Under the pieces are notes generated by a model, which was not told the DNA's origin, did no database searches, and worked only from the letters and a program-made list of their open reading frames with translations. Made by a program: the position numbers and the translations under genes. This document shows, one piece after another, positions 1-18,895 of a DNA stretch of 19,677 nt. This DNA comes from a bacterium. Its GTDB lineage: Bacteria; Sysuimicrobiota; Sysuimicrobiia; Sysuimicrobiales; Humicultoraceae. Each line of letters opens with the position of its first letter. The stretch's first letter is position 1. Location: assembly GCA_041497675.1 (NCBI GenBank), contig JBGQGY010000067.1, positions 1 through 19,677 on the forward strand. Direction: 5' to 3'.

Positions 1-1911
<1,911 letters not shown>

Positions 1912-1923
1912 AGGTTCACTGGC

Positions 1924-1934
1924 ATTGTAGCACA
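1924..1934 (-). promoter_or_regulatory. putative extended -10 promoter (TGTGCTACAAT) for dnaE
   Basis: Minus strand reads TGTG-C-TACAAT, ending 12 nt before the dnaE ATG; matches the TRTGnTAnnnT extended -10 pattern in a GC-rich background. Confidence 0.55.
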
Positions 1935-1961
1935 GCCGAAATTCGCCGGCCGTGCCGGCGT

Positions 1962-3413
1962 CTACGCACCGGCGCGGCGAAGCGAAACTACGCAGAACAC
2001 GTGGCTGGTCTGCGGCAGCAGGTCGACCGGCTGCACGCTGATCAACCGGTAGCCGGCCTCCTCCCACCGTCGCAGGTCGCGCGCGCAGACGGCCAGGGAG
2101 CGCGCCATGTAGACGACGCGCTGAATCCGCGCCGTGGCCACCGTGCCGATGGTCTCAGACGGCAGCCCCTGCCCCTCGGCGGTCACGACCACGGCTGCGG
2201 GCCGTCGTCCCCGGGCCACGTAGCGATTCAACATCCCCAGGGGATCTCGCGAGAAAAACACAGCGTTGGTGACGCCGTTGGCGGTCGCCGCATCGCGGGC
2301 GTCTCCGATGCCCCGGCGGGTCGGCGTCACGCCTGTGGCCGACCCGGCCTCCTGCGCCATCGCGAGCACGAACAGGGGGTGCGTTGCGGAGAGATCGAAG
2401 GCGGTCTCCTCCGGGCGCAGGGCCGCGGCGCGCTTGACCGCCGCAACCAGGACCGCCGCCCCCGCCGGATGCGGCGGGAACTCGCTCGTCGGCCGTACCT
2501 GCACGCGAAAACCGGCCAGATCGTCCTCAACGTGATCTCGCCCCCACAAGAGGCGCAGCCGGGGACCGAGCAGTTCCAGCGTGGCCTGTGGTTGCACGGT
2601 GTGCAGGATGCCCACCAGACCCGGCACTCGATCGATCATCGCGTGCACCACCGCGGTCGGGTCCGGGAGCACGGAGGCGGTGGATAGGGTGAGCAGGGCC
2701 TCACCGGTGGCGAACGACGCGACGCCCACGATCCCGCGCAGCAGGCCGCGGCCGCTCTCGCGGTCATAGACCCCGAGGTTCAAGGATCGGGCGACGTGGC
2801 GCGCCGCGCGCAGCATTGCCTCGTTGGCCGGATGCTGCACCGGGCACTCGGCGATGTCGAGCACGCGCGGTTCGCCCGAGACATGATAGCCGACCACGGC
2901 GACGCCGTCGCGCTCGCCGAATACCGCCCGCAGCGTGCTGCGGTAGTGCCAGGGATCCGCTCCCACCGTCTCCAGCACGAGGTCGCGCCTCATCGCCGCA
3001 TGCTCTTTCAGGTAGTCCTTGACCAGTCGTGTCTTCAAGCGGCGCTGCGCGTCTGGTACGAGGTGCTGCCACTGGCATCCGCCGCAGCGGCCGAAGTGCT
3101 GGCACCGCGCGCGGACGACGTCGGGGACCTTGCGGATGAGCGCCACAAGGCGGCCCTCTGCCCGGCGGCCCCCCTTCGTCACTTCAACAATGGCTTCTTC
3201 GCCGGGCACCCCAAACGGCACGGACAGCTGCACGACACCCAATCGTGCCACGGCGGCCCCATCAGGGTCGACGGCGGAGAACCTCACCGTCAAACGCTCG
3301 CCCATATGCAGGGTGCCCAGCCCGCCGCGGCGGGGATGACGCGTCGGCGGCTCGGTCTTGGGGATGAGGATGTTGGTGCGTGGGGGCTTGGGCGCGGGGG
3401 TTGGTTGGGTCAC
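1962..3413 (-). CDS. rlmD: RlmD/TrmA-family RNA m5U methyltransferase homolog (TRAM-like domain + Fe-S motif), catalytic motifs degenerate
   Basis: TRAM-like N-terminus (VPFGVPGEEAIVEV), CQHFGRCGGCQWQH plus distal CPVQH, PWHYR, and C-terminal ARDL...GY...VQPVDLLPQTSHV. GTG start overlaps the gatB TGA (GTGA). Symbol is family-level; activity is doubtful (see findings). Confidence 0.85.
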   Translation of the reverse strand: MTQPTPAPKPPRTNILIPKTEPPTRHPRRGGLGTLHMGERLTVRFSAVDPDGAAVARLGVVQLSVPFGVPGEEAIVEVTKGGRRAEGRLVALIRKVPDVVRARCQHFGRCGGCQWQHLVPDAQRRLKTRLVKDYLKEHAAMRRDLVLETVGADPWHYRSTLRAVFGERDGVAVVGYHVSGEPRVLDIAECPVQHPANEAMLRAARHVARSLNLGVYDRESGRGLLRGIVGVASFATGEALLTLSTASVLPDPTAVVHAMIDRVPGLVGILHTVQPQATLELLGPRLRLLWGRDHVEDDLAGFRVQVRPTSEFPPHPAGAAVLVAAVKRAAALRPEETAFDLSATHPLFVLAMAQEAGSATGVTPTRRGIGDARDAATANGVTNAVFFSRDPLGMLNRYVARGRRPAAVVVTAEGQGLPSETIGTVATARIQRVVYMARSLAVCARDLRRWEEAGYRLISVQPVDLLPQTSHVFCVVSLRRAGA

Positions 3414-4870
3414 ACTCCAAGCCTCCGCCGCAGGAGCCGAGTGGCGGTCTCAGGGTTCGCCCGCCCCCCGGTCGCCTTCATGATCTGCCCCATCAAGAAG
3501 CCCATGGCCGCGTTCTTGCCGGCCCTGACGTCGGCCGCGGGCCCGGGGTGATCCGCGACGATCTTATCCACGATGTCACCGAGGGCCGCTTCGTCCCTGA
3601 TCTGCGTGAGACCGCGGGCTTCGACGATAGCGGCCGGGTCTCGGTCCTCGCGGATCGTCTCGACGAGAACCTCTTTGGCGATGCGCCCGCTGATGGTCCC
3701 GTCCTCGATCAGCCGCAGCAGCGACGCCAGGCGCTCGGGTGACAGGCCGAGCTGATCCAGGTCGGCGCCGGTGTCATTCAGATAGCCGGTGACGTCACCC
3801 GTAATCCAGTTGGCCACCGTCTTGGGCTGTGGAAACAGCGCCACCGCGCGTTCGAAGAACGCCGCGACCGAGGGCGCGGTGGTCAGCAGGTCCGCATCGT
3901 ACGCCGACAGCCCGTACGCGGCGACGAACCTGTCCCGCCGGGCGGCGGGGAGTTCGGGCAGCTCCGCCCGCACGCTCTCCAGCCAGTTGTCGTCGACGAC
4001 CAGCGGCACCAGATCGGGCTCGGGGAAGTATCGGTAGTCCTGAGCCTCTTCCTTCGAGCGCGAGCCGAAGGTCACCTCGCGCCGTTCATCCCAGTGGCGG
4101 GTTTCCTGTGCGACGGAGTCGCCCCGGGCCAGCACGGCGCGCTGGCGCTCGACTTCGAACGCCAGGGCGCGCTCGACCGACCGAATCGAGTTCATGTTCT
4201 TGACCTCGGTGCGTGTCCCAAACGGACCGCCGGGCCGCTGCAGCGACACGTTGGCGTCGCAGCGCAGAGTTCCTTCCTCCATCCGGCCGGTGCTCACCTC
4301 CGCGAACTGTAGCAGGCGGCGCAAGGCGGTGAGGAACTCGCGCGCCTCGGCCGGTGCGCGGAGGTCAGGTTGCGTGACGATCTCCATCAAGGGCACGCCC
4401 GACCGGTTGTAGTCGATCAGGCTGCCGCCGTGTTGATCGGGCGAGTGCACCAACCGGCCGGTGTCTTCTTCGAGGTGCACGCGCCGGATACGGATGCGCC
4501 GCTTCTGGCCATCGACGTTGATGTCCAGGTGGCCGTCGGTAGCCAGCGGTGCGTGATCGGCGTATTCGTATTGCGAGATCTGATAGCCTTTTGGAATGTC
4601 CGGATAGAAATAGTTCTTTCGGTGAAACTGGCTGTGCGGGTGCACCCGACACTCCAGCGCCAGGGCCGTCCGCAACCCCAACTCCACCGCGCGCCGGTTC
4701 AGCACCGGCAGCGATCCCGGCAGGCCCAGACACACCGGACAGATCCGCGTGTTCGGCGACGCGCCGAAACTCACCGCGCACCCACAAAACATCTTGGAGA
4801 CCGTCAAGAGCTGGACGTGAATCTCCAGCCCCACAACCGTCTGGTACTCGATCGCCGCTTCTTTGGCCAT
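3410..4870 (-). CDS. gatB: Asp-tRNA(Asn)/Glu-tRNA(Gln) amidotransferase subunit B
   Basis: VGLEIHVQL, CPVCLGLPGSLP, RKNYFYPD, HLEED, DYNRSGVPLMEIV, RCDANVS, EVKNMNS, DYRYFPEPDL, C-terminal YqeY-like GQIMKATGGRANP. Confidence 0.99.
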   Translation of the reverse strand: MAKEAAIEYQTVVGLEIHVQLLTVSKMFCGCAVSFGASPNTRICPVCLGLPGSLPVLNRRAVELGLRTALALECRVHPHSQFHRKNYFYPDIPKGYQISQYEYADHAPLATDGHLDINVDGQKRRIRIRRVHLEEDTGRLVHSPDQHGGSLIDYNRSGVPLMEIVTQPDLRAPAEAREFLTALRRLLQFAEVSTGRMEEGTLRCDANVSLQRPGGPFGTRTEVKNMNSIRSVERALAFEVERQRAVLARGDSVAQETRHWDERREVTFGSRSKEEAQDYRYFPEPDLVPLVVDDNWLESVRAELPELPAARRDRFVAAYGLSAYDADLLTTAPSVAAFFERAVALFPQPKTVANWITGDVTGYLNDTGADLDQLGLSPERLASLLRLIEDGTISGRIAKEVLVETIREDRDPAAIVEARGLTQIRDEAALGDIVDKIVADHPGPAADVRAGKNAAMGFLMGQIMKATGGRANPETATRLLRRRLGV

Positions 4871-4877
4871 CGGCGGT

Positions 4878-6344
4878 TCAGGCCGTGGCCACCGGCGGCC
4901 GCCGGCGGTGCCAGGGTGTCGCCTGTTCGTAGGTGTAGGCCGCGCGGAACAACGTCGACTCGTCGAAGGGCCGCCCGATCAGCTGCATGCCGATCGGCAG
5001 GCCCCGCGCGAACCCACACGGCACCGCCAGCCCGGGCAGACCGGCGAGGTTCACCGGGATCGTAAAGATGTCGGACAGATACATCTGGAGCGGATCTTCG
5101 GCCTTCTCACCGATCGCAAACGGCAGGGTGGGCGCCACCGGCATGACCACGACGTCGACCTTGCGAAAGGCCGCCTCGAAGTCCCTCGCGACCAGCGTCC
5201 GCACACGCTGCGCCTTGAGGTAGTAGGCGTCGTAGTAGCCGGCCGAAAGCGCGTACGTCCCCAGCATGATACGCCGCTTCACCTCATCCCCGAACCCTTG
5301 GCGACGGGTCTCCGCGTACATCTCGTGCAGGTCCTCGGACGGCGCGCGCAACCCGTATTGGACTCCGTCATAGCGCGCCAGGTTCGAGGAGGCTTCCGCC
5401 GGCGCGATCAGGTAGTACGCGGGCAGCGCGGCCTCGATGGTCGGCAGGCTGATGCGCTCGACCTGCCCCCCGTGTGCCGCGAAGACATCGAGCGCGTGCC
5501 GCACCGCCTCGGCCACCGCGGGCTCGACACCCGGACCGACGACCTCGTCGGGCACACCCAGGCGCAGGCCACCGGCGCCCTCCCCGATCGCGGCGATGTA
5601 GTCGGGCACGGGCACGTCCGCCGACGTCGAATCCTGCGGGTCCTTCCCCGCAATGGCGCGCAGCATCAGGGCGCAGTCCGTGACGTCACCGGCCAACGGG
5701 CCGATCTGATCGAGTGAAGAGGCGAATGCCACCAACCCGTATCGCGAGACTCGACCGTAGGTCGGCTTCAATCCCACGATGCCGCAGAACCCCGCGGGCA
5801 GCCTGACCGATCCCCCCGTGTCCGAGCCGAGCGCGAGCGGGACAAACCCCGCCGCGACGGCCGCCGCCGAGCCTCCGCTGGACCCCCCAGGCACCCGCGA
5901 CGGATCCCACGGGTTCCGGGTCGGCCCGAACGCGGAGTACTCTGTTGACGAGCCCATCGCGAATTCATCCAGGTTCGTCTTCCCGATGATGATGGCGCCG
6001 GCTTCTCGCAGCCGTGTGACCACGGTGGCGTCGTACGGGGGCCGCCAGCCTTCCAGGATGCGCGATCCGCAGGTCGTCGGGACGCCGCGCGTGCACATGT
6101 TGTCCTTGATCGCCACCGGCACCCCTGCGAGCGATGGCAGCGTCTCCCTTGCGCCCACCCGAGCGTAGCGCTCATCCCAGACCGCGGCCTCGGCCCGCGC
6201 CTGATCCGCACCCACATAAAGGAAGGCATGCAGGTGGCGGTCGTGCCGGGCGATGTGGTCGAGGGCGGCGTCTACGACGTCAGACGGCCGCAGGCTCTTC
6301 TCGAGATACGCGGCGCGCAACGCGAGTGCGCCGGAGGGGGGCAT
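4878..6344 (-). CDS. gatA: Asp-tRNA(Asn)/Glu-tRNA(Gln) amidotransferase subunit A
   Basis: Amidase signature [60 protein letters not shown]; lies between gatC and gatB. Confidence 0.99.
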
Positions 6345-6353
6345 CGGGATTTC

Positions 6354-6653
6354 TTAGCCGCCTTCCAGCACCCGCGGGACGCGGAAGAACCCGTCCTGGT
6401 GCGCGGGAGCCTGGGCGAGGACTTCGTCGCGATCCAGCGACGGAGTGGCAACATCATCACGCAGGACGTTGGTGATCGGGATCACGTGCGATGCCGGCGG
6501 CACGTCGGCCAACGGCAGTGCATTGAGCCGGGCGCAGTGCTCGAGGATCCGCGCGATCTGTTCCGCGAAACGTTCGCGATCCCGCTCGGAGACGGCCAGG
6601 CGGGCCAGATGAGCCATGTGCTCGACGGTCGCGCGATCGTTGACCTGGCTCAT
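6354..6653 (-). CDS. gatC: Asp-tRNA(Asn)/Glu-tRNA(Gln) amidotransferase subunit C
   Basis: VEHMAHLARL...NVLRDD...LAQAP...GFFRVPRV. ATG at 6653 gives a typical 99-aa GatC; the ORF-track start at 6704 is probably too long. Confidence 0.96.
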   Translation of the reverse strand: MSQVNDRATVEHMAHLARLAVSERDRERFAEQIARILEHCARLNALPLADVPPASHVIPITNVLRDDVATPSLDRDEVLAQAPAHQDGFFRVPRVLEGG

Positions 6654-6711
6654 AAGATCAACCGTTGGCGTTTCCCGACGGGAATCCTCCGGTGGCATTC
6701 GCACAATACGA

Positions 6712-6737
6712 AGGCCGGGGCATGTGGGCCCCGGCCT
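6712..6737 (-). terminator. putative terminator/stem-loop between oppF and gatC
   Basis: Perfect 10-bp inverted repeat AGGCCGGGGC-N6-GCCCCGGCCT, followed on the minus strand by only a weak T tract (TCGTATTGT). Confidence 0.5.
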
Positions 6738-6764
6738 CAGGAGAAACCAACTGGTGTGCGAGCG

Positions 6765-7790
6765 CTAAGACGTCGGCGCCTTGAGGACCGCGGACTTGCT
6801 CCGCTGCGACTTGAACGGCTGGATCTCGCAGGCCACAAAGTGTCCGTTGCTCCGGTAGTCCGTGAGCACCTGCTCATTCACCTTGCATGACTCCTGCGCA
6901 TACAGGCAGCGGGTGTGGAAGTTGCACCCCTTCGGCGGGTTGACCGGGCTGGGCACGTCACCAGGCAGGATGATGCGCTCGCGCCGCATCATCGGGTCGG
7001 GGATCGGCACCGCCGACAGCAACGCCTCGGTGTACGGGTGCTGCGGGTTGGCGAACAGCTCCTCGGTGGTGGCGATCTCAGCGATCTTCCCCAGGTACAT
7101 GACGGCGATGCGGTCGCTGATGTGCTTCACGACCGACAGGTCGTGGGCGATGAACAGATAGGTCAGCCCGAACTCTTTCTGGAGCTCCTGCAGGAGGTTC
7201 AAGACCTGCGCCTGGATCGAGACGTCCAGGGCCGAGACCGGCTCGTCGCAGATGATGAGTTTGGGGTTCACCGCGAGCGCGCGGGCAATACCGATCCGCT
7301 GCCGCTGACCGCCGGAAAACTCGTGCGGGTAGCGGTTGGCGTGGTAGGGCGAGAGCCCCACGACTTCCAGCAGTTCCTGAACACGGCGGACCTTTTCCTT
7401 CCCCCGCGCCAGATTGTGAATCTCCAGCGGCTCGCCGATGATGTCGCCGACCGTCATCCGCGGATTCAGCGAGGAGTACGGGTCCTGGAAGATGATCTGC
7501 ATGTTGCGCCGCATCCGGCGCAGCTCTTCCTTGCCCAGCTTGAACACGTTTTGATTCTCGAACTGGACATCGCCGGACGTCGGCTCCATCAATCGCAGGA
7601 TCACCCGGCCGGTCGTCGTCTTGCCGCAGCCCGACTCACCCACCAGCCCGAGCGTCTCGCCCTGCCGGATACTGAACGAGACGTTGTCGACGGCTTTGAC
7701 CGCCCCGACCTGCTTCTGGAAGATGAAGCCCTTGGTAATGGGGAAGTGTTTGACGAGGTTCTTGACATCGAGGATGACCTCTCCGGCCAC
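6765..7790 (-). CDS. oppF: oligopeptide/dipeptide ABC transporter ATP-binding protein (OppF/DppF type)
   Basis: [45 protein letters not shown]-terminal GCNFHTRC...C...C. Confidence 0.95.
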
Positions 7791-7802
7791 GATGCGTTCC
7801 TC

Positions 7803-8852
7803 CTACGAAGATCGTGTCGACACGGCCAAGCCTGCCGCGGCGGCGTGCTTCTTCTCTTCTTCGGTGGCGTGCTGCGAGTATAAGAAACACTTCGCGGAAT
7901 GACCCGCCTGGATATCATAGTCCGGCGGATCCTGCTGCACGCAGATCTCCATGGCGAACGGGCAGCGCGGGGCAAACGCGCAGCCCACCGGTAGGTCGAT
8001 GAGGCTGGGCGGCTGTCCCTCGATGGGAATCAGACGCTCCTTGCGCGTGTAGAGCTTCGGGATCGAGCGCAGCAGCCCCCAGGTGTACGGGTGCTTCGGG
8101 TCCTGGAACGTGCGCTTGATGTCCGTGTGCTCGACGGGTTTGCCGGCGTACATGACCACCACGTTGTCGCACATCTCGGCCACGACACCCAGGTTGTGGG
8201 TGATCATGATGACCGCCATGTTGAACTCGCGCTGGAGTTCTTTGACCAGTTCGAGGATCTGCGCCTGAATCGTCACGTCCAAGGCCGTCGTCGGCTCGTC
8301 CGCGAGCAGGATGGACGGGTTGCAGGAGAGCGCCATGGCGATCATGACGCGCTGCCGCATGCCACCGCTGAACTGGTGCGGGTAGTCCCTCACACGCTCG
8401 CGCGCCAGCGGAATCTTCACGCGCTCCAACATCTCAATGGCGCGTTCCCAGGACGCCCTCTTGTCGAGCTTTTGGTGGAGGATGACCGCCTCGGCGATCT
8501 GCTCGCCGATCGTCAGCACGGGGTTGAGCGAGGTCATCGGCTCCTGGAAGATCATCGCGATCCGGTTGCCGCGGATATGCCGCATCGGCTCGTCCTTGAG
8601 GGTGAGGAGGTTCTTGCCCTCAAAGAGCACTTCCCCCTCGACGATTTTGCCGGGAGGCGTGGGGATCAGTCGCAGGATCGACAGCGCGTGGACGCTCTTG
8701 CCGCATCCGGACTCGCCGACGATACCCAGCGTCTCGCCTTTGTGCAGGTCGTAGGACAGGCCGTCGACGGCCTTGACGACGCCCTCATCGGTATAGAAGT
8801 AGGTTTTGAGGTTCCGCACGGACAGCAGCGGCTGCTCGGCCACTCGAGTCAC
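7803..8852 (-). CDS. oppD: oligopeptide/dipeptide ABC transporter ATP-binding protein (OppD/DppD type)
   Basis: [50 protein letters not shown]...C...C; GTG start. Confidence 0.95.
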
Positions 8853-8880
8853 CTCTTCCGGTTTCCCTTCAGGTTCTCCG

Positions 8881-8915
8881 CAGGTTGGTCGAATCCTCTC
8901 CCCCCGGCCAACCCG
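8881..8915 (-). promoter_or_regulatory. imperfect stem-loop downstream of SBP gene
   Basis: Minus-strand CGGGTTGGCCG-N13-CGACCAACCTG forms an 11-bp stem with one G-U pair and one mismatch; no U tract. Confidence 0.35.
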
Positions 8916-8919
8916 CCCC

Positions 8920-9013
8920 CTACTGATCCCCCCACTTCCACTCCCAGGCGTTCCATATAGGGGCCCCGGGTAGGTTCTACTGGTCGCCCCACTTCCACTC
9001 CCAGGCGTTCCAT
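8920..9013. repeat. 37-bp direct repeat (35/37 identical): SBP gene 3' end and an orphan downstream copy
   Basis: 8920-8956 CTACTGATCCCCCCACTTCCACTCCCAGGCGTTCCAT vs 8977-9013 CTACTGGTCGCCCCACTTCCACTCCCAGGCGTTCCAT, separated by 20 nt. Confidence 0.95.
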
Positions 9014-10650
9014 GGGATGTAGTACGAACCCAGCCCCACGGGCTTCACGTTACGCATGGCCTTGGGGTAGGTCGTGAGGTCCAACCGGAAGTACAGCGGC
9101 AGGCTGGGCAGGTCCTCGGCGAAGACCTCCTGCTGCTTCTTGAGCAGCGCGTTCCGCTTCTCGACGTCGAGTTCGGCGATGATCTGCTCCCACATCTTGT
9201 CGTTGTCGGGATTGCGCCACCCGACGCGGTTGTTGCCAGACCACGAGTTGGTGGCTGACGGGACTTCGTTGCTATGGAACCGGTCGGACGGCACATCCTC
9301 TGGCGTAAACAGGCTGGCGTACATGGCCATGTGGGGGAACTGCCGCCGGGTCGTGTAGGTACCGAAGAAGACGGAGGCCGGCCGGTTCTCGATGCGGACG
9401 TCAATGCCGACCTGCCGGAGCTGCTCCTGAATGATCTGCTCGACCTGCTCCCGGATCGAGTTCCCGGCGGTCGTGGAGATGACCATTTCCACCCGCCGTC
9501 CAGTGCTGTCGCGCAACACCCCGTCGGGACCGGGCCGGAAGCCGGCCTCGGTCAGCAACGCGCGCGCCTTTGCGGGGTCGTAGTCGTACTTCTTGACGTT
9601 CGGATTTGCGGCAGGATGACCCGGGGCCATCCACGAGTGCGCCACGGGTTGCCGGCCGCCGGCGCACGAGACCTCGGCGATGGCCTTGCGGTCCAGGGCG
9701 TGGCCGATGGCCTGTCGCACCCGTCTGTCCTTCAGCCAGACGTCGTCGTTGTTGAAGTCGATGCGCTCCCAGACCATGGCCTCGCGGTGGTGGGCCTCCA
9801 CGCGCGGGTTGCGTTGGGCGACCTGCTCCATCTGCAGGCAACTGAAGTTGTTGATGTCGGTGGCGTCCACGCCGCCCGAAATGACGTTGGCCTGCAGGAC
9901 GGTGCTGTCGAGGATAAACCGCAGTGTGATCTTCTTGATAGCCGGCGCGCCGAGCGGCCACTTCTCGTTCGCCTCGAACGACATATGGCTACCGGGAACC
10001 CACTCGGTCATCTTGTACGGGCCCGCGCCCACGGCCAGTCGCCAATATGGATGTGCCTTCAACTGGGCGGGGTTCGCGAGATAAGCCCGCTCGAGGATGT
10101 GGCGCGGCAGCACGTACCTTTGGCCGAACGGCTGGCTGCCGGCGAAGGGCCACAGCTCGTTCCACTGCACGACCATCGTGTAGGGATCGTCGGGGTTGGG
10201 GACCGAAATGTTGTCGACTTTATTCAGGACGAACCGGGCAATGCTGGGCACCTGGGGATTCCGCATCATCCCGTAGGTGAACCGCCAGTCGAGCGCCGTG
10301 ACCTGCTTCCCGTCGTGCCAGGTAAAGCCGCGCTTCAACTTCCAGGTCACCCGCATTTTCTTGTTGGGCAGCACCTGCCAGTCGCCGTCCTTGAGGGTCG
10401 GGAACTTCTCCACCATCAGGGGGATGCGCTGCCACTTATCGTTGAAGGGCGTGATGTCACCAAGCACGATGTTGTGGATGACGCCGGCTGCCGCCATGAC
10501 CCCCATCGGCCCGATGATGTCGGGTTCCTGAGCCATGCCGATCACAACCATGTCACGGCGCTGCTGGGCGTCACCCGCGGACGGCACCAGGGCGAACGCC
10601 AGCGCCGCCACGGTTAGCACCACAGCCGCACGGATCGATACCGCTCTCAT
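8977..10650 (-). CDS. peptide ABC transporter substrate-binding protein (SBP family 5)
   Basis: Start at ATG 10650 with AAGGGGGG RBS and Sec-type signal MRAVSIRAAVVLTVAALAFALVPSAGDA; motifs TWHDGKQVTA, GAGPYK, DRRVRQAI, YDYDPAKARALL, LPLY. The ORF-track start at 10788 overlaps oppC. Confidence 0.95.
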   Translation of the reverse strand: MRAVSIRAAVVLTVAALAFALVPSAGDAQQRRDMVVIGMAQEPDIIGPMGVMAAAGVIHNIVLGDITPFNDKWQRIPLMVEKFPTLKDGDWQVLPNKKMRVTWKLKRGFTWHDGKQVTALDWRFTYGMMRNPQVPSIARFVLNKVDNISVPNPDDPYTMVVQWNELWPFAGSQPFGQRYVLPRHILERAYLANPAQLKAHPYWRLAVGAGPYKMTEWVPGSHMSFEANEKWPLGAPAIKKITLRFILDSTVLQANVISGGVDATDINNFSCLQMEQVAQRNPRVEAHHREAMVWERIDFNNDDVWLKDRRVRQAIGHALDRKAIAEVSCAGGRQPVAHSWMAPGHPAANPNVKKYDYDPAKARALLTEAGFRPGPDGVLRDSTGRRVEMVISTTAGNSIREQVEQIIQEQLRQVGIDVRIENRPASVFFGTYTTRRQFPHMAMYASLFTPEDVPSDRFHSNEVPSATNSWSGNNRVGWRNPDNDKMWEQIIAELDVEKRNALLKKQQEVFAEDLPSLPLYFRLDLTTYPKAMRNVKPVGLGSYYIPWNAWEWKWGDQ

Positions 10651-10682
10651 GTCTGTCCCCCCTTGTGGGTGTGAACCGTTGA

Positions 10683-11603
10683 CTAGGTCTTCAGGCGCGG
10701 GTCGAGGGCGTCGCGCAGCCCGTCGCCCAGGAAATTGAAAGACAGCACGGTCAAGAAGATGAACAGTCCGGGAAACACTGCCAGCCACGACGCCTTCAGC
10801 AGGTACTCCTGAGCCCGCGTCAGCATGTTCCCCCAGGACGGCGTGGGCGGTTGAATGCCCAACCCGAGGAACGACAGCCCCGATTCGGCGAGGATCGCGT
10901 TGCCGACGGTCAGCGTGGCGGCGACGATCACCGGCGCCATCGCGTTAGGGATCAGGTGCCGCAGGATGATTCGGACCTCAGACGCCCCCATGGCGCGGCC
11001 GGCCTCGACGAAGTCGGCGCTTTTCAGTGAGAGGATCTGCGCGCGGACCAGTCGCGCCACAGTGGTCCAGCCGAAGACCGTAAAGATCAAGACGATCCGG
11101 CCCACGCCGCCACCCGGGATGAGCGCAGCCAGGATCAGGTACAGCGGCAGCACCGGCACCGAGATCAAGATGTCGACCAGGCGCATGAGCACGCTGTCGA
11201 CCCAGCCGCCGTAAAACCCGGCCGCCGCGCCGATCAACGCGCCTGAGATCGAGATCGCGAAGGCCGTCACATAGCCGACGACCAGCGAGATGCGGCCGGC
11301 GAACATGATTCGGGTCAGCACGTCGCGGCCCAGCTCATCGGTGCCAAAGGCGTTCATCAGCGTGGGCGCGACCCATCGCTCTTGCAGGTTGATCTTGTCA
11401 AAGGAGTGCGGTGCGATCCAGGGCGCCAGCACCGCCATCAACGTCAGCCCGATCGCCGCGGTCCCGCCGATCAACGCCAAGCGGTGCTTGAGGAACCGGC
11501 GCCAGGCAACCTGCAAATATGACTGGCCGATGGCAACGCCGGCCGCCGCCTTGCGCCGCCGCTCGAGCTCCAACGCGATCTGTTGCGGTGTGGCCTGCGC
11601 CAT
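10683..11603 (-). CDS. oppC: peptide ABC transporter permease (OppC/DppC type)
   Basis: WRRFLKHRLA, FGTDELGRD, EAA-loop FVEAGRAMGA, ESGLSFLGLG, WGNML, GDGLRDALDP. Confidence 0.94.
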   Translation of the reverse strand: MAQATPQQIALELERRRKAAAGVAIGQSYLQVAWRRFLKHRLALIGGTAAIGLTLMAVLAPWIAPHSFDKINLQERWVAPTLMNAFGTDELGRDVLTRIMFAGRISLVVGYVTAFAISISGALIGAAAGFYGGWVDSVLMRLVDILISVPVLPLYLILAALIPGGGVGRIVLIFTVFGWTTVARLVRAQILSLKSADFVEAGRAMGASEVRIILRHLIPNAMAPVIVAATLTVGNAILAESGLSFLGLGIQPPTPSWGNMLTRAQEYLLKASWLAVFPGLFIFLTVLSFNFLGDGLRDALDPRLKT

Positions 11604-11622
11604 CGGGGCCCCTCTCCGACGC

Positions 11623-12606
11623 TCACTCGTACCGGATCCGCGGGTCCACCATCGCGTAGGCGACGTCCGCGAGCAGATTGAACACGACGGTGGTCAAAGC
11701 CAGAAACAGCAGGACGGCCATCGCGACATTGTAGTCGTGACCCAGCACGGCCTGGAAGAGCGCCAACCCCATCCCCGGCCACGAGAACACCGTCTCGGTC
11801 AACACCGACCCGTTGAGCAGGCCCGGGACAGACAGGGCGACCAGCGTGATGATCGGGATCAGCGCATTCCGCATCGCGTGCTTGTTGATCACGACGCGTT
11901 CATCGTTGCCCTTCGCCCTGGCCGTGCGGACGTAGTCCTGGCGGATCACTTCGAGCATGCTGCTGCGCATGTAGCGCGCCCACGCCGCGGTGTTAAACGT
12001 CGCCAACACCACGACCGGGAGGATCAGGTGCCACAATCGATCCATCAGCGCGGGCCAGCCTGGTGCCACGCCGGGCGTGAGCATGCCCCCCGCCGGGAAC
12101 CACGGTATCCAGACGGCGAAGAGCAAAATAAAGACAATGCCCTGCCAGAACACCGGGACCGAGTGCCCGGCGAACGCCGCCACGGTAATGAAGTAGTCCA
12201 ACTTGGAATACTGGTGCAGCGCCGAATAGACGCCGGCCGATACTCCCACGATGAACGCCAGGACGAAAGCGCCGGAGAGGAGCCACAGGGTATTCTTCAG
12301 ACGCTCACTGATGATTTTCGTGACCGGCTGGCCGTACGTCCGCGAGTAGCCCAGACGCGTGCCTGTCGCGGGGTCGCCGAGGACCAGGATGCGCACCCAC
12401 TTGACGTACCGCACGTACAGCGGGTCATCCAGACCGTAGTACTTGCGGAGCATGGCCGTGTCTTCCGCCCGGATATCCGGGTTGCTGGCCGCCAGGAGTT
12501 CAACGGGATCGCCGGGGGTGAGGACCAACAGCGAAAACATCAAGACCGACAGACCAACGAGTATGAAGACCCCGTGTACGAGACGCCGGAACAGAAATCG
12601 CTGCAT
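11623..12606 (-). CDS. oppB: peptide ABC transporter permease (OppB/DppB type)
   Basis: Start ATG 12606 (GGAGGG RBS), MQRFLFRRL, PGDP, YGLDDP, DYVRTARAKG, HAMRNALIP, ETVFSWPGMG, DPRIRY. Confidence 0.94.
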   Translation of the reverse strand: MQRFLFRRLVHGVFILVGLSVLMFSLLVLTPGDPVELLAASNPDIRAEDTAMLRKYYGLDDPLYVRYVKWVRILVLGDPATGTRLGYSRTYGQPVTKIISERLKNTLWLLSGAFVLAFIVGVSAGVYSALHQYSKLDYFITVAAFAGHSVPVFWQGIVFILLFAVWIPWFPAGGMLTPGVAPGWPALMDRLWHLILPVVVLATFNTAAWARYMRSSMLEVIRQDYVRTARAKGNDERVVINKHAMRNALIPIITLVALSVPGLLNGSVLTETVFSWPGMGLALFQAVLGHDYNVAMAVLLFLALTTVVFNLLADVAYAMVDPRIRYE

Positions 12607-12623
12607 GGCCGCCCTCCGGTAGG

Positions 12624-12649
12624 GGGGGTGGGGTTCTACCCCCACCCCC
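12624..12649 (-). promoter_or_regulatory. stem-loop between SBP gene and oppB
   Basis: GGGGGTGGGG (12624-12633) and CCCCACCCCC (12640-12649) form a perfect 10-bp stem; no U tract. Confidence 0.55.
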
Positions 12650-12669
12650 TCCGCTTCGGTTCGACCGGG

Positions 12670-14319
12670 CTACTGCGTCCAGCCCCACTCCTGGGAGTTC
12701 CAGTTGATGTACGTGCCGGACAAACCCGCGGGCTTGACGTTTTGCAGCCGCTTGTTGGCGGTGTTCAGCTGGAGACGGAAGTACAGCGGAATCGCGGGCA
12801 GCTCCTCCGCCCAGATCTCCTGCTGCTTCTTCAGCAGGGCCACGCGCTTGGCGGAATCGATCTCCTGCAGGATCTCGTTGTTGAGCTTGTCGTTCTCGGC
12901 GTTCCGCCAGCCGGGATAGTTCGAGCCTTCCCAGCTGTTCTGCGCGGTCGGAATCTGGTCGGCGTTCCAGAACGCATGCGGCAACGTGAGCGGCGACATG
13001 ACCCACGCGTACATGACCATGTGCGGGAACTGCCGCTGGCGTGTCGTCTGCCCGAACAAGACGCCCGCCGGCCGGTTATCGATCCGAAGATCGATGCCCA
13101 CGGCCCGCATCGACTCTTTCATGATCTGCTGCACCTGCTCGCGAACAGCGTTGCCGGCGGTGGTCATGATGCTCATCTCGAACCGCTGGCCGCGGGCGTC
13201 CCGCATAATGCCGTCGGAGCCCATGGTAAAGCCGGCTTCCTGGAGCAGCGCGCGCGCGCGGGCCGGGTCGTAGTTGTACTTTCTGACGTTGGCGTTGTAG
13301 CCTTCATGGCGCTCGGGCAGCCAGGTATGGGCGACGGGCTGTTTGCCGTAGAAGAGTTTCTGGCTGAGCTCGTCGCGGTTGATGGAGTGCGCCAGCGCCT
13401 GGCGGACACGCTTGTCCTTCAGCCACTCGTTCTCGAGGTTCAGGTCGATGTGTTCCCAGATCAGTGCCGGTGTGTAGTAGGCATTCTGCTGCGGGTTGCG
13501 CTTTTCGATCTCGAGCATCTGCTCGATCGAGAAGTTGTTGATCTCGGTGGCGTCGACCTGGTTGGCGATGACGTTTGCCTGGAGCACCGTCGAGTCGAGA
13601 ATGAACCGCCAGGTCTGTCGCTTGATCTTGGCCGGCCCGCCTGGGAACTTGTCGTACGCCTCAAGCGTGATGTGGCTCCCCGCAACCCACTCGGCAAACT
13701 TGTACGGGCCGTTGCCGATCGGGGCGCGGGCCTGCTTGTGCGCCTTTAGGGTGGACGGGTCGCGCAGGTACTCCTTCTCCATCACATGTTTCGGGTAGAC
13801 GGCATGCCCGGTGTTCGCGAATGGATACCGCTCGTTCCACTGAACAACAAGCGTCGAGGCGTCCTTGGCGGTCATGTTGTCGATCTTGCGCAAGATCGTC
13901 CGGGACAGGGTCGGGCTACGCGGGTTACGCAGCATCAGGTACGTCCACGAGGCGTCCTGGGCGGTGTAGGGTTGCCCGTCGTGCCACGTGTAGCCCCGCT
14001 TGAGCTTGTAGGTGACGCGCATCTTCCCACCGGGGAGCAACTCCCAGTCGCCGTCTTTCAGAGTCGGGATCTTCTCGACGGTCGCGGGGAAGAGCTGCCA
14101 CTTGTCGTTGTAGTTGACCATCCCGAGAAGAATCGAGTTGACTTCGATGGCGGCGCCCGCGGCCATCTGGCAGAATTGACCGATCAAACAGTCGGGCTCC
14201 TGCGCCATGCCGATGACGACCGTGTCGCGGCTCTGCTGTGCCTGCGCCGCCGGCAGGGTTCCAAGCGCCAGCAGGGCCAGCACGACCATGCTGAGCACAG
14301 GACCGATGCGGTGCTTCAT
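12670..14319 (-). CDS. peptide ABC transporter substrate-binding protein (SBP family 5), paralog of 8977..10650
   Basis: AAGGAGG RBS, Sec signal ending AQA; TWHDG, GNGPYK, DKRVRQAL, YDPARARALL; shares blocks such as VVIGMAQEPD, PTLKDGDW, RFILDSTVLQANVI and RQFPHM with the other SBP. Confidence 0.96.
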   Translation of the reverse strand: MKHRIGPVLSMVVLALLALGTLPAAQAQQSRDTVVIGMAQEPDCLIGQFCQMAAGAAIEVNSILLGMVNYNDKWQLFPATVEKIPTLKDGDWELLPGGKMRVTYKLKRGYTWHDGQPYTAQDASWTYLMLRNPRSPTLSRTILRKIDNMTAKDASTLVVQWNERYPFANTGHAVYPKHVMEKEYLRDPSTLKAHKQARAPIGNGPYKFAEWVAGSHITLEAYDKFPGGPAKIKRQTWRFILDSTVLQANVIANQVDATEINNFSIEQMLEIEKRNPQQNAYYTPALIWEHIDLNLENEWLKDKRVRQALAHSINRDELSQKLFYGKQPVAHTWLPERHEGYNANVRKYNYDPARARALLQEAGFTMGSDGIMRDARGQRFEMSIMTTAGNAVREQVQQIMKESMRAVGIDLRIDNRPAGVLFGQTTRQRQFPHMVMYAWVMSPLTLPHAFWNADQIPTAQNSWEGSNYPGWRNAENDKLNNEILQEIDSAKRVALLKKQQEIWAEELPAIPLYFRLQLNTANKRLQNVKPAGLSGTYINWNSQEWGWTQ

Positions 14320-14353
14320 ACTCTTGGCCTCCTTCGTACGTCAGAGTTGTCGT

Positions 14354-14734
14354 TCAGTTCAGACTTCGCATGACAATCGCCAGGGGATCACCACTCAGGA
14401 ACACCGGATCGCGGTCCTGCGCGCGCTCCCGCCGTGAAGGCCCGACGTAGATGTCGTCCGCCCTCTTGCCATCCCGCACCCAAACGGACCGGATCCTCGT
14501 CTCCGGCGCCCGCCGACCGCTCGGTGTGGCCGGAGCCTTCCGTTCCTCGAGGAAGCGGTCAACATCGGCCTTCAGGATGCGATAGAGTTTGCCGAGCTTT
14601 GCCGCGGGAATCTTCCCCTCGCGCACGTACCGGTACACCGTCAGGCGGTTCATCTGAAGATACGCCGCCACCTGGTCGACGGTCATGACTGGGCCGGCCC
14701 GCCTCACGTCCGCTGCCCTAGGCTTTCTAGCCAT
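14354..14734 (-). CDS. excisionase-family (HTH_17, MerR-like winged HTH) DNA-binding protein, probable regulator
   Basis: VMTVDQVAAYLQMNRLTVYRYVREGKIPAAKLGKLYRILKADVDRFL matches the Xis/HTH_17 pattern; ~55-aa unrecognised C-terminal tail; AGGGGGG RBS. Confidence 0.88.
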   Translation of the reverse strand: MARKPRAADVRRAGPVMTVDQVAAYLQMNRLTVYRYVREGKIPAAKLGKLYRILKADVDRFLEERKAPATPSGRRAPETRIRSVWVRDGKRADDIYVGPSRRERAQDRDPVFLSGDPLAIVMRSLN

Positions 14735-14750
14735 TGCGGACCCCCCTATA

Positions 14751-14780
14751 CAAGAGCATCCAATAACATACTAGAATATA
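14751..14780 (-). promoter_or_regulatory. AT-rich promoter region with three tandem 10-bp direct repeats
   Basis: CAAGAGCATC / CAATAACATA / CTAGAATATA at an exact 10-bp period, just upstream of the HTH_17 gene; includes -10-like TATATT and TAGTAT on the minus strand. Confidence 0.55.
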
Positions 14781-14834
14781 CCCAATTCCACGATTCCGTC
14801 GCCGGTTCCGAAACTCCTTCTTGGCGTCCGCTAA

Positions 14835-15923
14835 CTATTTCGACCCCCGGAGTCTGGGGTCCAGGATGTCCCTGAAGGCGTCACCAAGCAGGTTCCAGCC
14901 CAGCACGAATAGGAAGATCGCGGCGCCGGGAAAAGCCAGCACGTACCAGTAGGCAAACGGCCGACCGGGCGCACCGAGAATCCAGTTTCGGGACAGGTTG
15001 ATCAGCATCCCCCAGTCGGCGTAGCCGACCTCCGCCCCCAACCCCAGGAAGGACAGCGCCGCGGCGGTGATGACAATCAGCCCCATGTCGAGCGAGCTCA
15101 GCACCATGAAAGGGTAGATGGCGTTCGGGATCACGTGGCGGAGGATAATGCGCGCGTCACCGGCACCGCACGCCCGCGCCGCCTCGACGAAATCCCGGCC
15201 GCGGACCGTCAGGATGTCCCCGCGCAGCAAGCGAGCGTAGATCGGCCAGTGGACCACGGCGATAGCGACCATGACGTTGTCCAGGCTACGCCCCAGCACT
15301 GCTACGACGGTCACGGCCAGCACGAGCCCCGGGAACGCCAGGAAGACATCGGTAATGCGCATCATGGTTTCATCGAGCCAGCCGCCATAGTACCCGGACA
15401 GGCCGCCAAACACGAGGCCGATGACCACGGCGATGACGATCACGACGATCGAGACTCGGAAGGCGGTCCGCGCCCCCCAGACGATCCCGTAGTAGATGTC
15501 GTATTGCCCTTCAGTGGTCCCAAAGATGTGCCGGCCCCGCGGCGGCTGAGGGTCGCTGCCGAATCCCTCTTGGGGGATCAGATATACGTTGCGCGAGGTG
15601 GCCGGCGGGGGCGCCAGAATCGGCGCCAGAACGGCCAGCGACACAAATGCCACGATCAGCGAGAACCCGACGACCGAGAGAATGTTCTTGCGGAGCCGCT
15701 TGGTGACGTCGGATGGGATCGTCCAGAACGCGAAGACCGCGACCGCCACGAAGAGAAACTCGGCCGCGGCCAGGGGAAAGCGGGCGACGCGGTCGCGAAC
15801 CCCTGGGACGACGACGGCCGCGAGCACGATGGCGACGCCGAAGACCGCGATGCCGCCGAGGCGTCCGCGGTAGGCGGGCGGCGCCGCTTCCTCCCGGGCG
15901 ATGCTCAACGTGTGCATCGTCAC
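14835..15923 (-). CDS. peptide ABC transporter permease (OppC/DppC type) with N-terminal hydrophobic extension
   Basis: HIFGTTEGQYD, FVEAARACGA, RHVIPN, LSFLGLG, DWG, GDAFRDILDP; GTG start overlaps the upstream TGA (alternative ATG at 15917). Confidence 0.93.
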   Translation of the reverse strand: MTMHTLSIAREEAAPPAYRGRLGGIAVFGVAIVLAAVVVPGVRDRVARFPLAAAEFLFVAVAVFAFWTIPSDVTKRLRKNILSVVGFSLIVAFVSLAVLAPILAPPPATSRNVYLIPQEGFGSDPQPPRGRHIFGTTEGQYDIYYGIVWGARTAFRVSIVVIVIAVVIGLVFGGLSGYYGGWLDETMMRITDVFLAFPGLVLAVTVVAVLGRSLDNVMVAIAVVHWPIYARLLRGDILTVRGRDFVEAARACGAGDARIILRHVIPNAIYPFMVLSSLDMGLIVITAAALSFLGLGAEVGYADWGMLINLSRNWILGAPGRPFAYWYVLAFPGAAIFLFVLGWNLLGDAFRDILDPRLRGSK

Positions 15924-16945
15924 TGCAGCCTGATCCGCGGGTCAAAGTACGCGTACAGGATGTCCGCCGCGAGGTTCCCGAGGACGGTCAGCGCCGCGAC
16001 GAACAGGGTAAACCCGGTCACGCCCGGGATATCCAGCTGCTGCGCGGCGAAGGCCCCCCACCGGCCGATCCCGGGGAAATTGAAGATCGTCTCGGTGATC
16101 ACAACGCCGCCGAGCAGACCGACGACGGTCAGGCTCGAGAGCGTGATGACCGGGATCAACGCGTTCTTGCGCGCGTGCTTCGTGTTGACCACGGTCTCCT
16201 CCAGCCCCTTGGCCCGGGCGGTCCGCACGTAGTCTTGGCTCAAAGCCTCCAGCATGGACGAGCGGGTCACGCGCACCAGCAGGGCGATCTGGATCATGAT
16301 CAGCGTCAGGGCGGGCCCGACCAGGTGGCGCGCGGCATCGACGAAGACCCAGAGTTGCCCATTGAGCAGGGCGTCGAGCGTCATGAAACCCGTGTAGGCG
16401 TGAAATTGACCGGACCGCACGAAGAGATCGGCGTCCAGGGACAACCGCCCCGGCGGAAACCAGTTCAACCGGCCGTAGAAGATCATCAAGAGCAGCAGCC
16501 CCCACACGAAGCTCGGCATCGAACGGAATGAGATCGAGAGCACCCGCGACAGATGGTCGATCGCGCGGTCGCGGTGCACCGCCGCCGCGGTCCCCAGCCA
16601 GACCCCGATAACCATCGTCGGGATGAACGCGTAGAACGTGAGCTCCAGCGTTGGCGGGAAAAAGGCGGCGATGGCTTCAGCCACGGGGAGCCGGGCCGTC
16701 TGCGACCAGCCAAGGTTGCCGTGGAAGAGCTCGCGGAGCCAGTGCAGGTACTGCACGTGGACGGGTTGGTCGAGCCCGTACTTCCTGATGATGGCGTCGA
16801 TGGCCTTAAGCTGGTTGGGGTTGGTGATGAACGCCCCGGCGCGGATCGCCGGATCGAGAAACTGCAGGAGGGCAAAAATCAGGATCGTGACGCCGAAAGC
16901 GACCAGCGGCAGCAACACCAACCGGCGCGCAATGTAACTGGCCAT
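15920..16945 (-). CDS. peptide ABC transporter permease (OppB/DppB type)
   Basis: Start ATG 16945 MASYIARRL; YGLDQP, GNLGWS, DYVRTARAKGL, HARKNALIP, ETIFNFPGIG, DPRIRL. The ORF-track extension to 17296 overlaps the SBP gene. Confidence 0.94.
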   Translation of the reverse strand: MASYIARRLVLLPLVAFGVTILIFALLQFLDPAIRAGAFITNPNQLKAIDAIIRKYGLDQPVHVQYLHWLRELFHGNLGWSQTARLPVAEAIAAFFPPTLELTFYAFIPTMVIGVWLGTAAAVHRDRAIDHLSRVLSISFRSMPSFVWGLLLLMIFYGRLNWFPPGRLSLDADLFVRSGQFHAYTGFMTLDALLNGQLWVFVDAARHLVGPALTLIMIQIALLVRVTRSSMLEALSQDYVRTARAKGLEETVVNTKHARKNALIPVITLSSLTVVGLLGGVVITETIFNFPGIGRWGAFAAQQLDIPGVTGFTLFVAALTVLGNLAADILYAYFDPRIRLQ

Positions 16946-16965
16946 CGTCCAACCCGCCTGGGCGT

Positions 16966-16994
16966 GGGCGGCCCGGGCGTAACCCGGGCCGCCC
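16966..16994 (-). promoter_or_regulatory. perfect GC stem-loop between SBP gene and permease B
   Basis: GGGCGGCCCGGG-N5-CCCGGGCCGCCC, a 12-bp perfect stem; no U tract. Confidence 0.6.
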
Positions 16995-17009
16995 CGTCTC
17001 AGACCCTTC

Positions 17010-18767: not shown

Positions 18768-18895
18768 GTTGCCCTGGCCTCCTTCTTCACGATGGTGCGC
18801 AATGTCGAGCACCTACGACCACGACTGCCGAGCCGGTCCGTCCGTGTCGGTCTACCACCTCCCCATGCCCGTGGGGCCGATCGGCCTCGCGGTCA

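Follow-up and report, generated by a model that had tools for sequence, protein, structure and literature searches.

The locus

The stretch of DNA analysed here, 19,677 nucleotides (nt) of contig JBGQGY010000067.1 (assembly GCA_041497675.1, Sysuimicrobiota) and referred to as the window, consists of a single string of minus-strand genes. The gene of concern is an open reading frame (ORF) at 1962..3413 (minus strand), which according to the ORF list and its translation runs for 483 codons from a GTG start to a TAG stop at 1962-1964 and encodes an RlmCD/RlmD-like pseudo-methyltransferase, that is, a relative of the RumA-type enzymes that form 5-methyluridine (m5U) in 23S rRNA in which the catalytic and cofactor-binding residues are replaced. 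It is flanked upstream by gatB (3410..4870, minus strand; Pfam GatB_N and GatB_Yqey) and, 50 nt downstream, by the 5' part of dnaE (1..1911, minus strand; Pfam PHP, DNA_pol3_alpha and finger domains), which runs off the window. The GTG start (3411-3413) overlaps the TGA stop of gatB (3410-3412), and a Shine-Dalgarno sequence, GGAGG at 3422-3426, lies within the 3' end of gatB, 8 nt upstream of the GTG.

Family assignment, fold and domain organization

The first-pass annotation of this DNA had read the ORF as in frame, full length and RlmD/RumA-like from end to end, and profile searches bear this out. The NCBIfam model TIGR00479 (rumA/RlmD) is matched at 215.7 bits (cutoff 183.55) by residues 50-472, which cover profile positions 3-431 of 432. 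Among sequences with solved structures the best match is RlmCD of Streptococcus pneumoniae (phmmer, E 3.4e-37, residues 47-478), and a profile-profile alignment (hhalign) of 26 sequences of the inactive group described below with 26 canonical ones gives a probability of 100% over 452 columns. An AlphaFold2 model of the protein, made from a 140-row alignment, is of high confidence except for the N-terminal tail (mean predicted local distance difference test score, pLDDT, 94.1; predicted template modelling score, pTM, 0.90). When compared with the PDB by Foldseek, it matches RlmCD (5zq0_A) with a template modelling (TM) score of 0.92 (E 1.7e-44, alignment over 451 columns), E. coli RumA with 0.86-0.88 (0.88 for the RNA-bound 2bh2_A), the archaeal RumA-like PabTrmU54 structures 2vs1/2jjq with 0.83-0.84 and TrmA (3bt7) with 0.76. 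The homology and the succession of TRAM, central and class-I methyltransferase domains that characterize RumA-type proteins are thus both present.

A basic, Pro/Arg-rich extension that is predicted to be disordered forms residues 1-36 (3306..3413, minus strand, as are all features of the ORF); its mean pLDDT is 43-53 over residues 1-30 and falls below 50 at residues 1-3 and 10-22. It is followed by a TRAM-like β-barrel (residues 37-100, 3114..3305), with model strands at 40-94. The earlier claim that this region is retained holds for the predicted fold; in sequence it is weak, as the Pfam TRAM model is matched below threshold (E = 0.2, 12 bits, cutoff 21) and recognizes 6 of the 26 inactive members versus 25 of the 26 canonical ones. 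The central domain (residues 101-295, 2529..3113) carries the cysteine ligands of an iron–sulfur (Fe-S) cluster and the RNA-contact equivalents R158, Y176 and Q193. The class-I methyltransferase-like domain (residues 296-483, 1965..2528) is confidently modelled (pLDDT 95-98), and all of its catalytic and S-adenosylmethionine (SAM) motifs are replaced. In a Pfam scan of the ORF protein the methyltransferase model PF05958, which describes the catalytic domain, is unmatched even at E values up to 1, and across the two sets of 26 it matches no inactive and every canonical member.

Loss of the catalytic and cofactor motifs

The substitutions were read from two alignments, the phmmer alignment to RlmCD and the profile-profile alignment, and the DNA letters were read directly for two of the motifs, YMARSL and HVF. 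The uracil-binding motif FYQVN has become EFPPH (residues 311-315, nt 2469-2483), with P313 at the position of the Gln. SAM motif I, D-x-Y-x-G-x-G, is DLSATHP (residues 340-346, nt 2376-2396), motif II, GVE, is GVT (residues 361-363, nt 2325-2333), and motif IV, DPPR, is TAEG (residues 411-414, nt 2172-2183). The nucleophile motif Y-I/V-S-C-N-P reads YMARSL (residues 435-440, nt 2094-2111), which places R438 at the position of the Cys, and the general-base motif HVE reads HVF (residues 471-473, nt 1995-2003), with F473 in place of the Glu. The ORF protein therefore has neither the SAM motifs I, II and IV nor the Cys nucleophile, the Glu base and the F-x-Q-x-N signature of the family. All six substitutions had been listed in the first-pass annotation; its position for HVF was exact and that for YMARSL (~2098-2112) a few bases off. 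The uracil pocket of RlmCD is described as F281, Q283, D381 and E443, with R384 contacting the ribose (PMC6235398), and in the phmmer alignment every one of these pocket residues is replaced.

To place these losses in context, a word-indexed search was used, and the best 120 of 161 relatives examined, from 99% down to 38% identity, were aligned with the query by MAFFT (121 rows); residue counts below use the 120 rows covering each column unless 121 is stated. Two canonical controls were available, namely 142 representatives from an exhaustive phmmer search and 76 genome loci, mostly from Bacillota. The latter derive from a genome scan with at least 600 matched stretches, 580 of them relatives, from which 80 loci were analysed, 76 canonical and 4 of the inactive type. 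These four are L001 (Ca. Fervidifonticultor octavus, phylum Ca. Sysuimicrobiota, CSP1-3), L002 (labelled Armatimonadota), L003 (a metagenome-assembled genome, MAG) and L005 ('Bacillati bacterium ANGP1').

The catalytic residues are absent throughout the group. The nucleophile Cys occurs in 0/120 inactive rows (Arg 78, His 32) versus 141/142 canonical representatives, the general-base Glu in 0/120 (His 104, Phe 6) versus 142/142, and the uracil-binding Gln in 0/120 (Pro 108) versus 141/142, so that the orthologs, which might have carried intact motifs, do not. The Arg of DPPR remains in a single row of 120 (Gly in 115) versus 141/142, while the Asp of motif IV is found in 139/142 canonical representatives. 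As for cofactor binding, the motif-II acid is missing from all 120 rows (Ala 60, Val 39) versus its presence in 141/142 (129 Glu and 12 Asp); the first Gly of motif I is kept in 7/120 (Glu in 51) versus 142/142, and the second in 55/120 (Pro in 65) versus 140/142. Each of these columns holds the consensus residue in 75-76 of the 76 canonical loci, L068 being gapped at the Cys column. With the consensus residues held in 139-142/142 and 75-76/76 of the canonical sets, motif losses on this scale go far beyond what chance would produce.

Many members of the inactive group are called '23S rRNA (uracil(1939)-C(5))-methyltransferase RlmD' in the source databases, and this naming is a systematic over-annotation. 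As to a possible second, intact m5U methyltransferase in the same genomes, entries for K03215, K00557, K03212 and K04094 were not found in the 12 of 14 supplementary files of PMC11962464 that were searched.

A different chemistry has to be weighed at this point, in which the protein modifies RNA or another substrate through other residues or another cofactor, for instance the Cys of A-V-C-A-R-D. The intact fold would allow it, as would the polar residues newly conserved in the former pocket (R/H438, H473 in 104/120 rows, N315 in 105/120, R366 and R389), the survival of the second motif-I Gly in nearly half of the rows and the weak matches of 3/26 inactive members to generic methyltransferase Pfam models (E ~4e-4). 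The shifted Cys had been named earlier as a possible route to methylation, but C443 of AVCARD is present in 62/120 rows, a Cys at a different position (C435) in 33/120, and 25 rows have no Cys in the stretch. It is thus not a conserved replacement nucleophile, and it was rejected as one for the group. Nor does any group-wide equivalent of the Cys, Glu or Gln exist, and from its SAM motifs the ORF protein has lost the two glycines of motif I, the acid of motif II and the Asp of motif IV. The known m5U mechanism, for which a covalent C408–U adduct was shown in RlmCD (PMC6235398), is described as requiring the Cys–C6 adduct and the Glu base (PMC6235398, PMC5614603). A cryptic enzyme of this kind is therefore very unlikely.

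Single origin and order of loss

Phylogenetic trees were inferred by quick LG+G4 searches with support from the Shimodaira–Hasegawa-like approximate likelihood ratio test (SH-aLRT) and were left unrooted. The tree of 85 rows contains a branch, supported by an SH-aLRT value of 100, that has all 31 inactive rows to one side. The same split is recovered with a support of 99 from residues 36-295, for which the methyltransferase-like domain was left out. The loss of the motifs has a single origin.

The deepest subgroup on the inactive side consists of P0124, P0160 and L005, that is, the 'ANGP1'-labelled MAG and its relatives. These sequences keep the G-x-G of motif I and the P-P of motif IV and are already without the Cys, the Glu, the Gln and the DPPR Arg. 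Because the deep branches retain G-x-G and P-P, the alignment suggests that the chemistry was lost first and that the SAM site was eroded stepwise later.

A further sequence from the search of protein representatives, P0213, is an unrelated-looking member of the RumA family whose motif loss is partial; it lies outside the window. Its nucleophile Cys is replaced by Pro, its F-x-Q is replaced and its DPPR reads T-P-P-K, with the G-x-G and the Glu base retained. It sits on a long branch among the canonical set and may represent an independent, second case of inactivation.

Selection on the inactive group

The ratio of nonsynonymous to synonymous divergence (dN/dS) was estimated by the method of Nei and Gojobori (NG86) with DNA from four relatives; dS is ~1 and saturated, so that the ratios are rough upper bounds. 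For the pseudo-methyltransferase gene they amount to ~0.27-0.30 (0.29 against L001 and 0.27 against L002, the two closest loci with DNA). For the same pairs gatB gives 0.18 and 0.25, and gatA 0.19 and 0.17. The gene thus behaves similarly to gatB and is not near the value of 1 that the first-pass annotation had associated with decay. By domain, dN/dS is 0.12-0.17 for residues 1-100 (tail and TRAM), 0.24 for the central domain and 0.36-0.49 for the methyltransferase-like domain. Column entropies are reversed between the two sets: the methyltransferase-like domain is the least conserved one in the inactive group (1.68 vs 1.38-1.41), whereas canonical proteins conserve it more than their other domains (1.87 vs 2.15-2.24). 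Even so, a set of 26 diverse inactive members reaches 90% conservation or more at 24 of the 188 C-terminal positions and shares 46 invariant columns in total. Purifying selection is accordingly strongest on the TRAM and the Fe-S central module and weaker, yet present, on the former catalytic domain.

These data bear directly on whether the gene is a decaying relic, a pseudogene-to-be that happens still to be open. In favour of decay one may cite the faster evolution of the former catalytic domain and the lower identity of the protein to its L001 counterpart, 65% compared with 76-83% for GatB, GatA and DnaE. However, the reading frame is open and close to full length in every one of the 120 best homologs, down to 38% identity, the dN/dS is well under 1 despite the saturated dS, the C-terminal fold is predicted with high confidence, its conserved positions persist among diverse members, and the translational coupling to gatB is conserved. 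Decay was rejected on the homolog survey, the conserved columns and the dN/dS, and its probability is close to negligible. The reading of the gene as a conserved, non-methylating pseudoenzyme was in this respect well founded. The protein is a homolog of active enzymes without their catalytic and cofactor residues, and it is maintained by selection.

Iron–sulfur ligands, RNA contacts and the N-terminal tail

As noted in the first-pass annotation, all four cysteines that ligate the [4Fe-4S] cluster in the family are retained, as C104-x5-C110-G-G-C113 (nt 3075-3104) and C190-P191 (C190 at nt 2844-2846). They are present in 120/120 (C104, C110 and C113) and 121/121 (C190) of the inactive rows that cover them. 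Nowhere is the protein more strictly conserved than at these ligands and in the C-x-H-F-G-x-C-G-G-C-Q-W/L-Q-H block around them.

Several residues that touch RNA in RlmCD are likewise preserved. Contacts are described for R127, H441, Q162, F145, N149, H151, N247 and N249 (PMC6235398). The equivalents of R127 (R158) and Q162 (Q193) are invariant in 121/121 inactive rows, that of F145 (position 176) is aromatic in 121/121 (Tyr 80, Phe 41), and that of H441 (position 471) is His, Arg or Lys in 120/120. With the pocket acids gone and R366, R389, R/H438 and H473 newly conserved, we infer from the alignments that the former pocket has become basic and that RNA docking is kept in part but remodelled.

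At the N-terminus, 76/121 inactive rows have at least 25 amino acids ahead of the TRAM barrel (median 33, net charge +6) versus 19/142 canonical representatives (median 8), so that the extension is mostly specific to the inactive group. A start at M37 is not conserved, and a P-T-R-H-P-R-R-G-G stretch recurs in ~50/121 inactive rows; because of this recurrence among relatives, the upstream GTG start is favoured.

The conserved cluster block, the lesser constraint on the catalytic domain and the basic tail found in most members of the group would all suit an Fe-S-gated regulator that binds mRNA or small RNA in the holo or the apo form only and tunes expression to iron or oxygen. The four cysteines are, however, equally conserved in active relatives (141-142/142), and their retention is by itself no sign of sensing. 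Furthermore, no candidate RNA element was found, a promoter and terminator scan of 1700-7000 returned 0 promoter-like and 3 terminator-like sites, which is the chance level, and the gene lies in a housekeeping string, not beside iron or redox genes. A dedicated regulator is decidedly improbable on this evidence.

Coupling to gatB and the wider neighbourhood

The overlap of the start codon with the gatB stop is found in 5/5 inactive-type loci (the window and the four related ones, in which it measures 4-11 nt). The gene directly upstream is gatB in L001, L002, L003 and L005. In the window, gatB is preceded in the same gene string by gatA (4878-6344, minus strand; Pfam Amidase) and gatC (6354-6704, minus strand; Pfam GatC). 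The same gatC-gatA-gatB order is present in L001 and L005, whereas the contigs of L002 and L003 end at gatA or gatB. On the other side, dnaE is directly downstream in L001, L002 and L005.

Among the canonical loci, gatCAB is located 0.6-7.6 kb upstream of an intact rlmCD-like gene in 24/76 (Bacilli and Negativicutes, Bacillota), and the gap to gatB is 624-7633 nt in all 24. From this distribution, the loose gatCAB-rlmCD linkage looks like an old and common feature of Bacillati. Active enzymes share it, and only the tight coupling to gatB sets the inactive group apart, so the idea that the gatCAB neighbourhood is a novelty of the inactive group was rejected.

This arrangement raises the alternative of a tRNA-linked factor, in which the inactive protein would bind tRNA, much as TrmA and the RumA-like archaeal TrmU54 bind the T-arm, and would work with the Glu/Asp-tRNA amidotransferase GatCAB, for example to hold or fold tRNA-Gln or tRNA-Asn for transamidation. 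The start–stop overlap in the window and in 4/4 related loci, compared with the wide canonical gaps, and the Shine-Dalgarno sequence inside gatB speak for it. RumA-fold enzymes can moreover use tRNA, as described for PabTrmU54 (PMC2528175), whose structures resemble the model, and TrmA is reported to act as a tRNA chaperone independently of catalysis (PMC7641329). Given that the linkage also occurs in canonical loci with intact motifs, the gatCAB neighbourhood is at least partly inherited and not newly evolved. Translational coupling alone is no proof of a physical or functional partnership either, and dnaE on the other side is conserved equally. Taken together, a GatCAB-linked role appears unlikely.

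The remainder of the window is occupied by back-to-back genes of Opp/Dpp-type peptide ABC transporters (6765-18812, minus strand), which encode two ATPases, four permeases and three family-5 solute-binding proteins (8977-10788, 12670-14319 and 17010-18812, minus strand). A short palindrome, GCCGGC-ACG-GCCGGC, is found at 1945-1959, within the 50 nt that separate the stop of the ORF from the ATG of dnaE (1911); it is not followed by a T-run, and the consensus scan did not score it as a terminator. The dnaE frame stays open for 52 codons upstream of its likely ATG (1912-2067, minus strand) and in doing so overlaps the 3'-terminal part of the pseudo-methyltransferase ORF. This open stretch was taken as a high-GC artefact and not as a true extension; the PHP domain starts at residue 7 counting from the ATG.

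A conserved protein, probably without catalysis

By its position and by phylogeny, the ORF product is an ortholog of the RumA-type 23S rRNA m5U methyltransferases (RlmCD/RlmD), and in our view it is very probably a conserved, inactive one. As to what it does, the best explanation overall, to which we give about an even chance, is a non-catalytic, Fe-S-bearing and RNA-binding factor that probably acts in the assembly of the large ribosomal subunit. An assembly role is favoured because the RNA-binding module is kept, because TrmA and inactive RlmB and RlmL provide precedents and because METTL17 offers a parallel.

The following course of events is proposed. In the ancestor of the lineage (Ca. 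Sysuimicrobiota/CSP1-3 and relatives), the entire SAM-binding and uracil-activating apparatus would have been lost, and selection would since then have retained the protein in a non-catalytic form. The protein may still bind structured RNA, most likely at one or more of the ancestral 23S rRNA sites (the loop of helix 35 or the region of 1939), and could, without methylation, assist the large ribosomal subunit in its folding or assembly. In a structural or a sensing role, the [4Fe-4S] cluster would keep the RNA-binding central domain in shape, whereby the stability or RNA affinity of the protein would come to depend on iron and oxygen status. As acids have been lost and Arg/His residues gained (R366, R389, R/H438, H473), the former SAM/uracil pocket probably contacts the phosphate backbone instead of a cofactor and a flipped base. 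The assembly-factor mechanism itself remains tentative and falls a little short of an even chance; tentative, too, are the roles of RNA-binding chaperone and Fe-S/redox sensor that the first-pass annotation had put forward.

Several observations weigh against this interpretation. The equivalents of the RNA-contacting residues H151 and N249 of RlmCD are lost. The same applies to R99 (of the S-P-x-R motif), K160 (K129 of RlmCD) and R231, all conserved in canonical proteins and situated off the active site. Together with F64, these last three make up four canonically conserved residues outside the catalytic domain that are gone from the inactive group, and the initial statement that only catalytic residues had been lost was in this regard overstated. 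As a consequence, the RNA target or the binding mode may now differ. In addition, the TRAM domain has diverged in sequence, cluster occupancy is predicted from the ligands alone, and the dN/dS values rest on a saturated dS and four DNA comparators. The tight, group-specific coupling to gatB hints at a role related to tRNA and GatCAB rather than to the ribosome, and the function of every member of the group is at present deduced from sequence.

A more far-reaching version can also be formulated, in which a RumA-type methyltransferase has turned into an Fe-S-gated RNA-binding switch that relays iron or oxygen status to the assembly of the large subunit or, considering the coupling to gatB, to tRNA amidation. 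Such a switch is speculative and rather improbable. Whatever the function, m5U1939 or m5U747 is probably predicted wrongly for genomes with this gene, because it scores above the TIGR00479 cutoff and its relatives are named 'RlmD'.

Comparison with known systems

RlmCD (SP_1029 of S. pneumoniae, YefA of B. subtilis), which forms both m5U747 and m5U1939 in 23S rRNA, is built from TRAM, central and class-I methyltransferase domains like the window protein, in which the equivalents of its RNA contacts R127, Q162, F145 and H441 are kept. The two differ in the active site, where F281 corresponds to Glu, Q283 to Pro, D381 to Thr, R384 to Gly, C408 to Arg and E443 to Phe, and the SAM loop is gone. 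S. pneumoniae RlmCD is also described as being without an Fe-S cluster (PMC5614603), whereas the window protein has all four ligands. The basic N-terminal tail of the latter is a further difference.

Compared with E. coli RumA/RlmD, a [4Fe-4S] enzyme that forms m5U1939 in 23S rRNA, the window protein has no equivalents of the nucleophile Cys and the general-base Glu, which we take to be C389 and E424. The equivalents of Q265 and D363 (PMC6235398) are likewise missing, and methylation is not expected from such a sequence. The Cys-x5-Cys-G-G-Cys...Cys pattern, on the other hand, matches Cys81/87/90 and the central-domain Cys of RumA (PMC5614603). The same source takes the RumA cluster to be presumably structural, reports a water-mediated RNA contact by Gly89 of the CGGC loop and still calls the role of [4Fe-4S] in RumA-type enzymes unclear (PMC5614603). 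A natural relative with the cluster and without the catalysis separates the two, which makes the non-catalytic role of the cluster directly testable.

METTL17 (Rsm22), the mitochondrial Fe4S4 assembly factor of the small subunit, is a functional parallel, as its methyltransferase fold carries a cluster bound by four cysteines, which is reported to be more conserved than the SAM motif (PMC11046306). Its cluster stabilizes the protein and its rRNA contact, and ribosome binding was shown experimentally (PMC11046306), while that of the window protein is deduced. The likeness is one of function; METTL17 belongs to another methyltransferase family, acts on the other subunit and is eukaryotic and organellar. 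Should the Fe-S-gated switch prove true, free-living bacteria would have an equivalent of the METTL17 checkpoint of mitochondria, and the RumA cluster, long without explanation, would receive its first functional assignment.

A literature search of limited coverage on RlmD, RumA and rRNA methyltransferase pseudoenzymes found no description of such an inactive group. The nearest published precedent found comes from some Mollicutes, whose TrmFO-like proteins carry a Cys-to-Tyr change (PMC7226160). These proteins are described as natural relatives of an m5U-forming enzyme with both catalytic cysteines replaced, for which moonlighting was proposed, although they belong to an unrelated flavin/folate-dependent family and have kept their cofactor sites (PMC7226160), whereas the window protein has lost its own.

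The closest functional precedents come from the laboratory. Inactive RlmB(E198A) and RlmL(N309A) are reported to still stimulate 50S assembly (PMC11194073), and TrmA, which belongs to the same m5U superfamily as the window protein, folds tRNA independently of catalysis (PMC7641329). RlmB, the RlmL domain and TrmA are, however, active enzymes whose second role was seen by means of laboratory mutants, while the window protein is naturally inactive and fixed in its lineage. It would thus be a natural counterpart to the findings that inactive rRNA and tRNA modification enzymes aid RNA folding and ribosome assembly, and it suggests that a second, non-catalytic role sufficed to keep the gene in at least one bacterial lineage.

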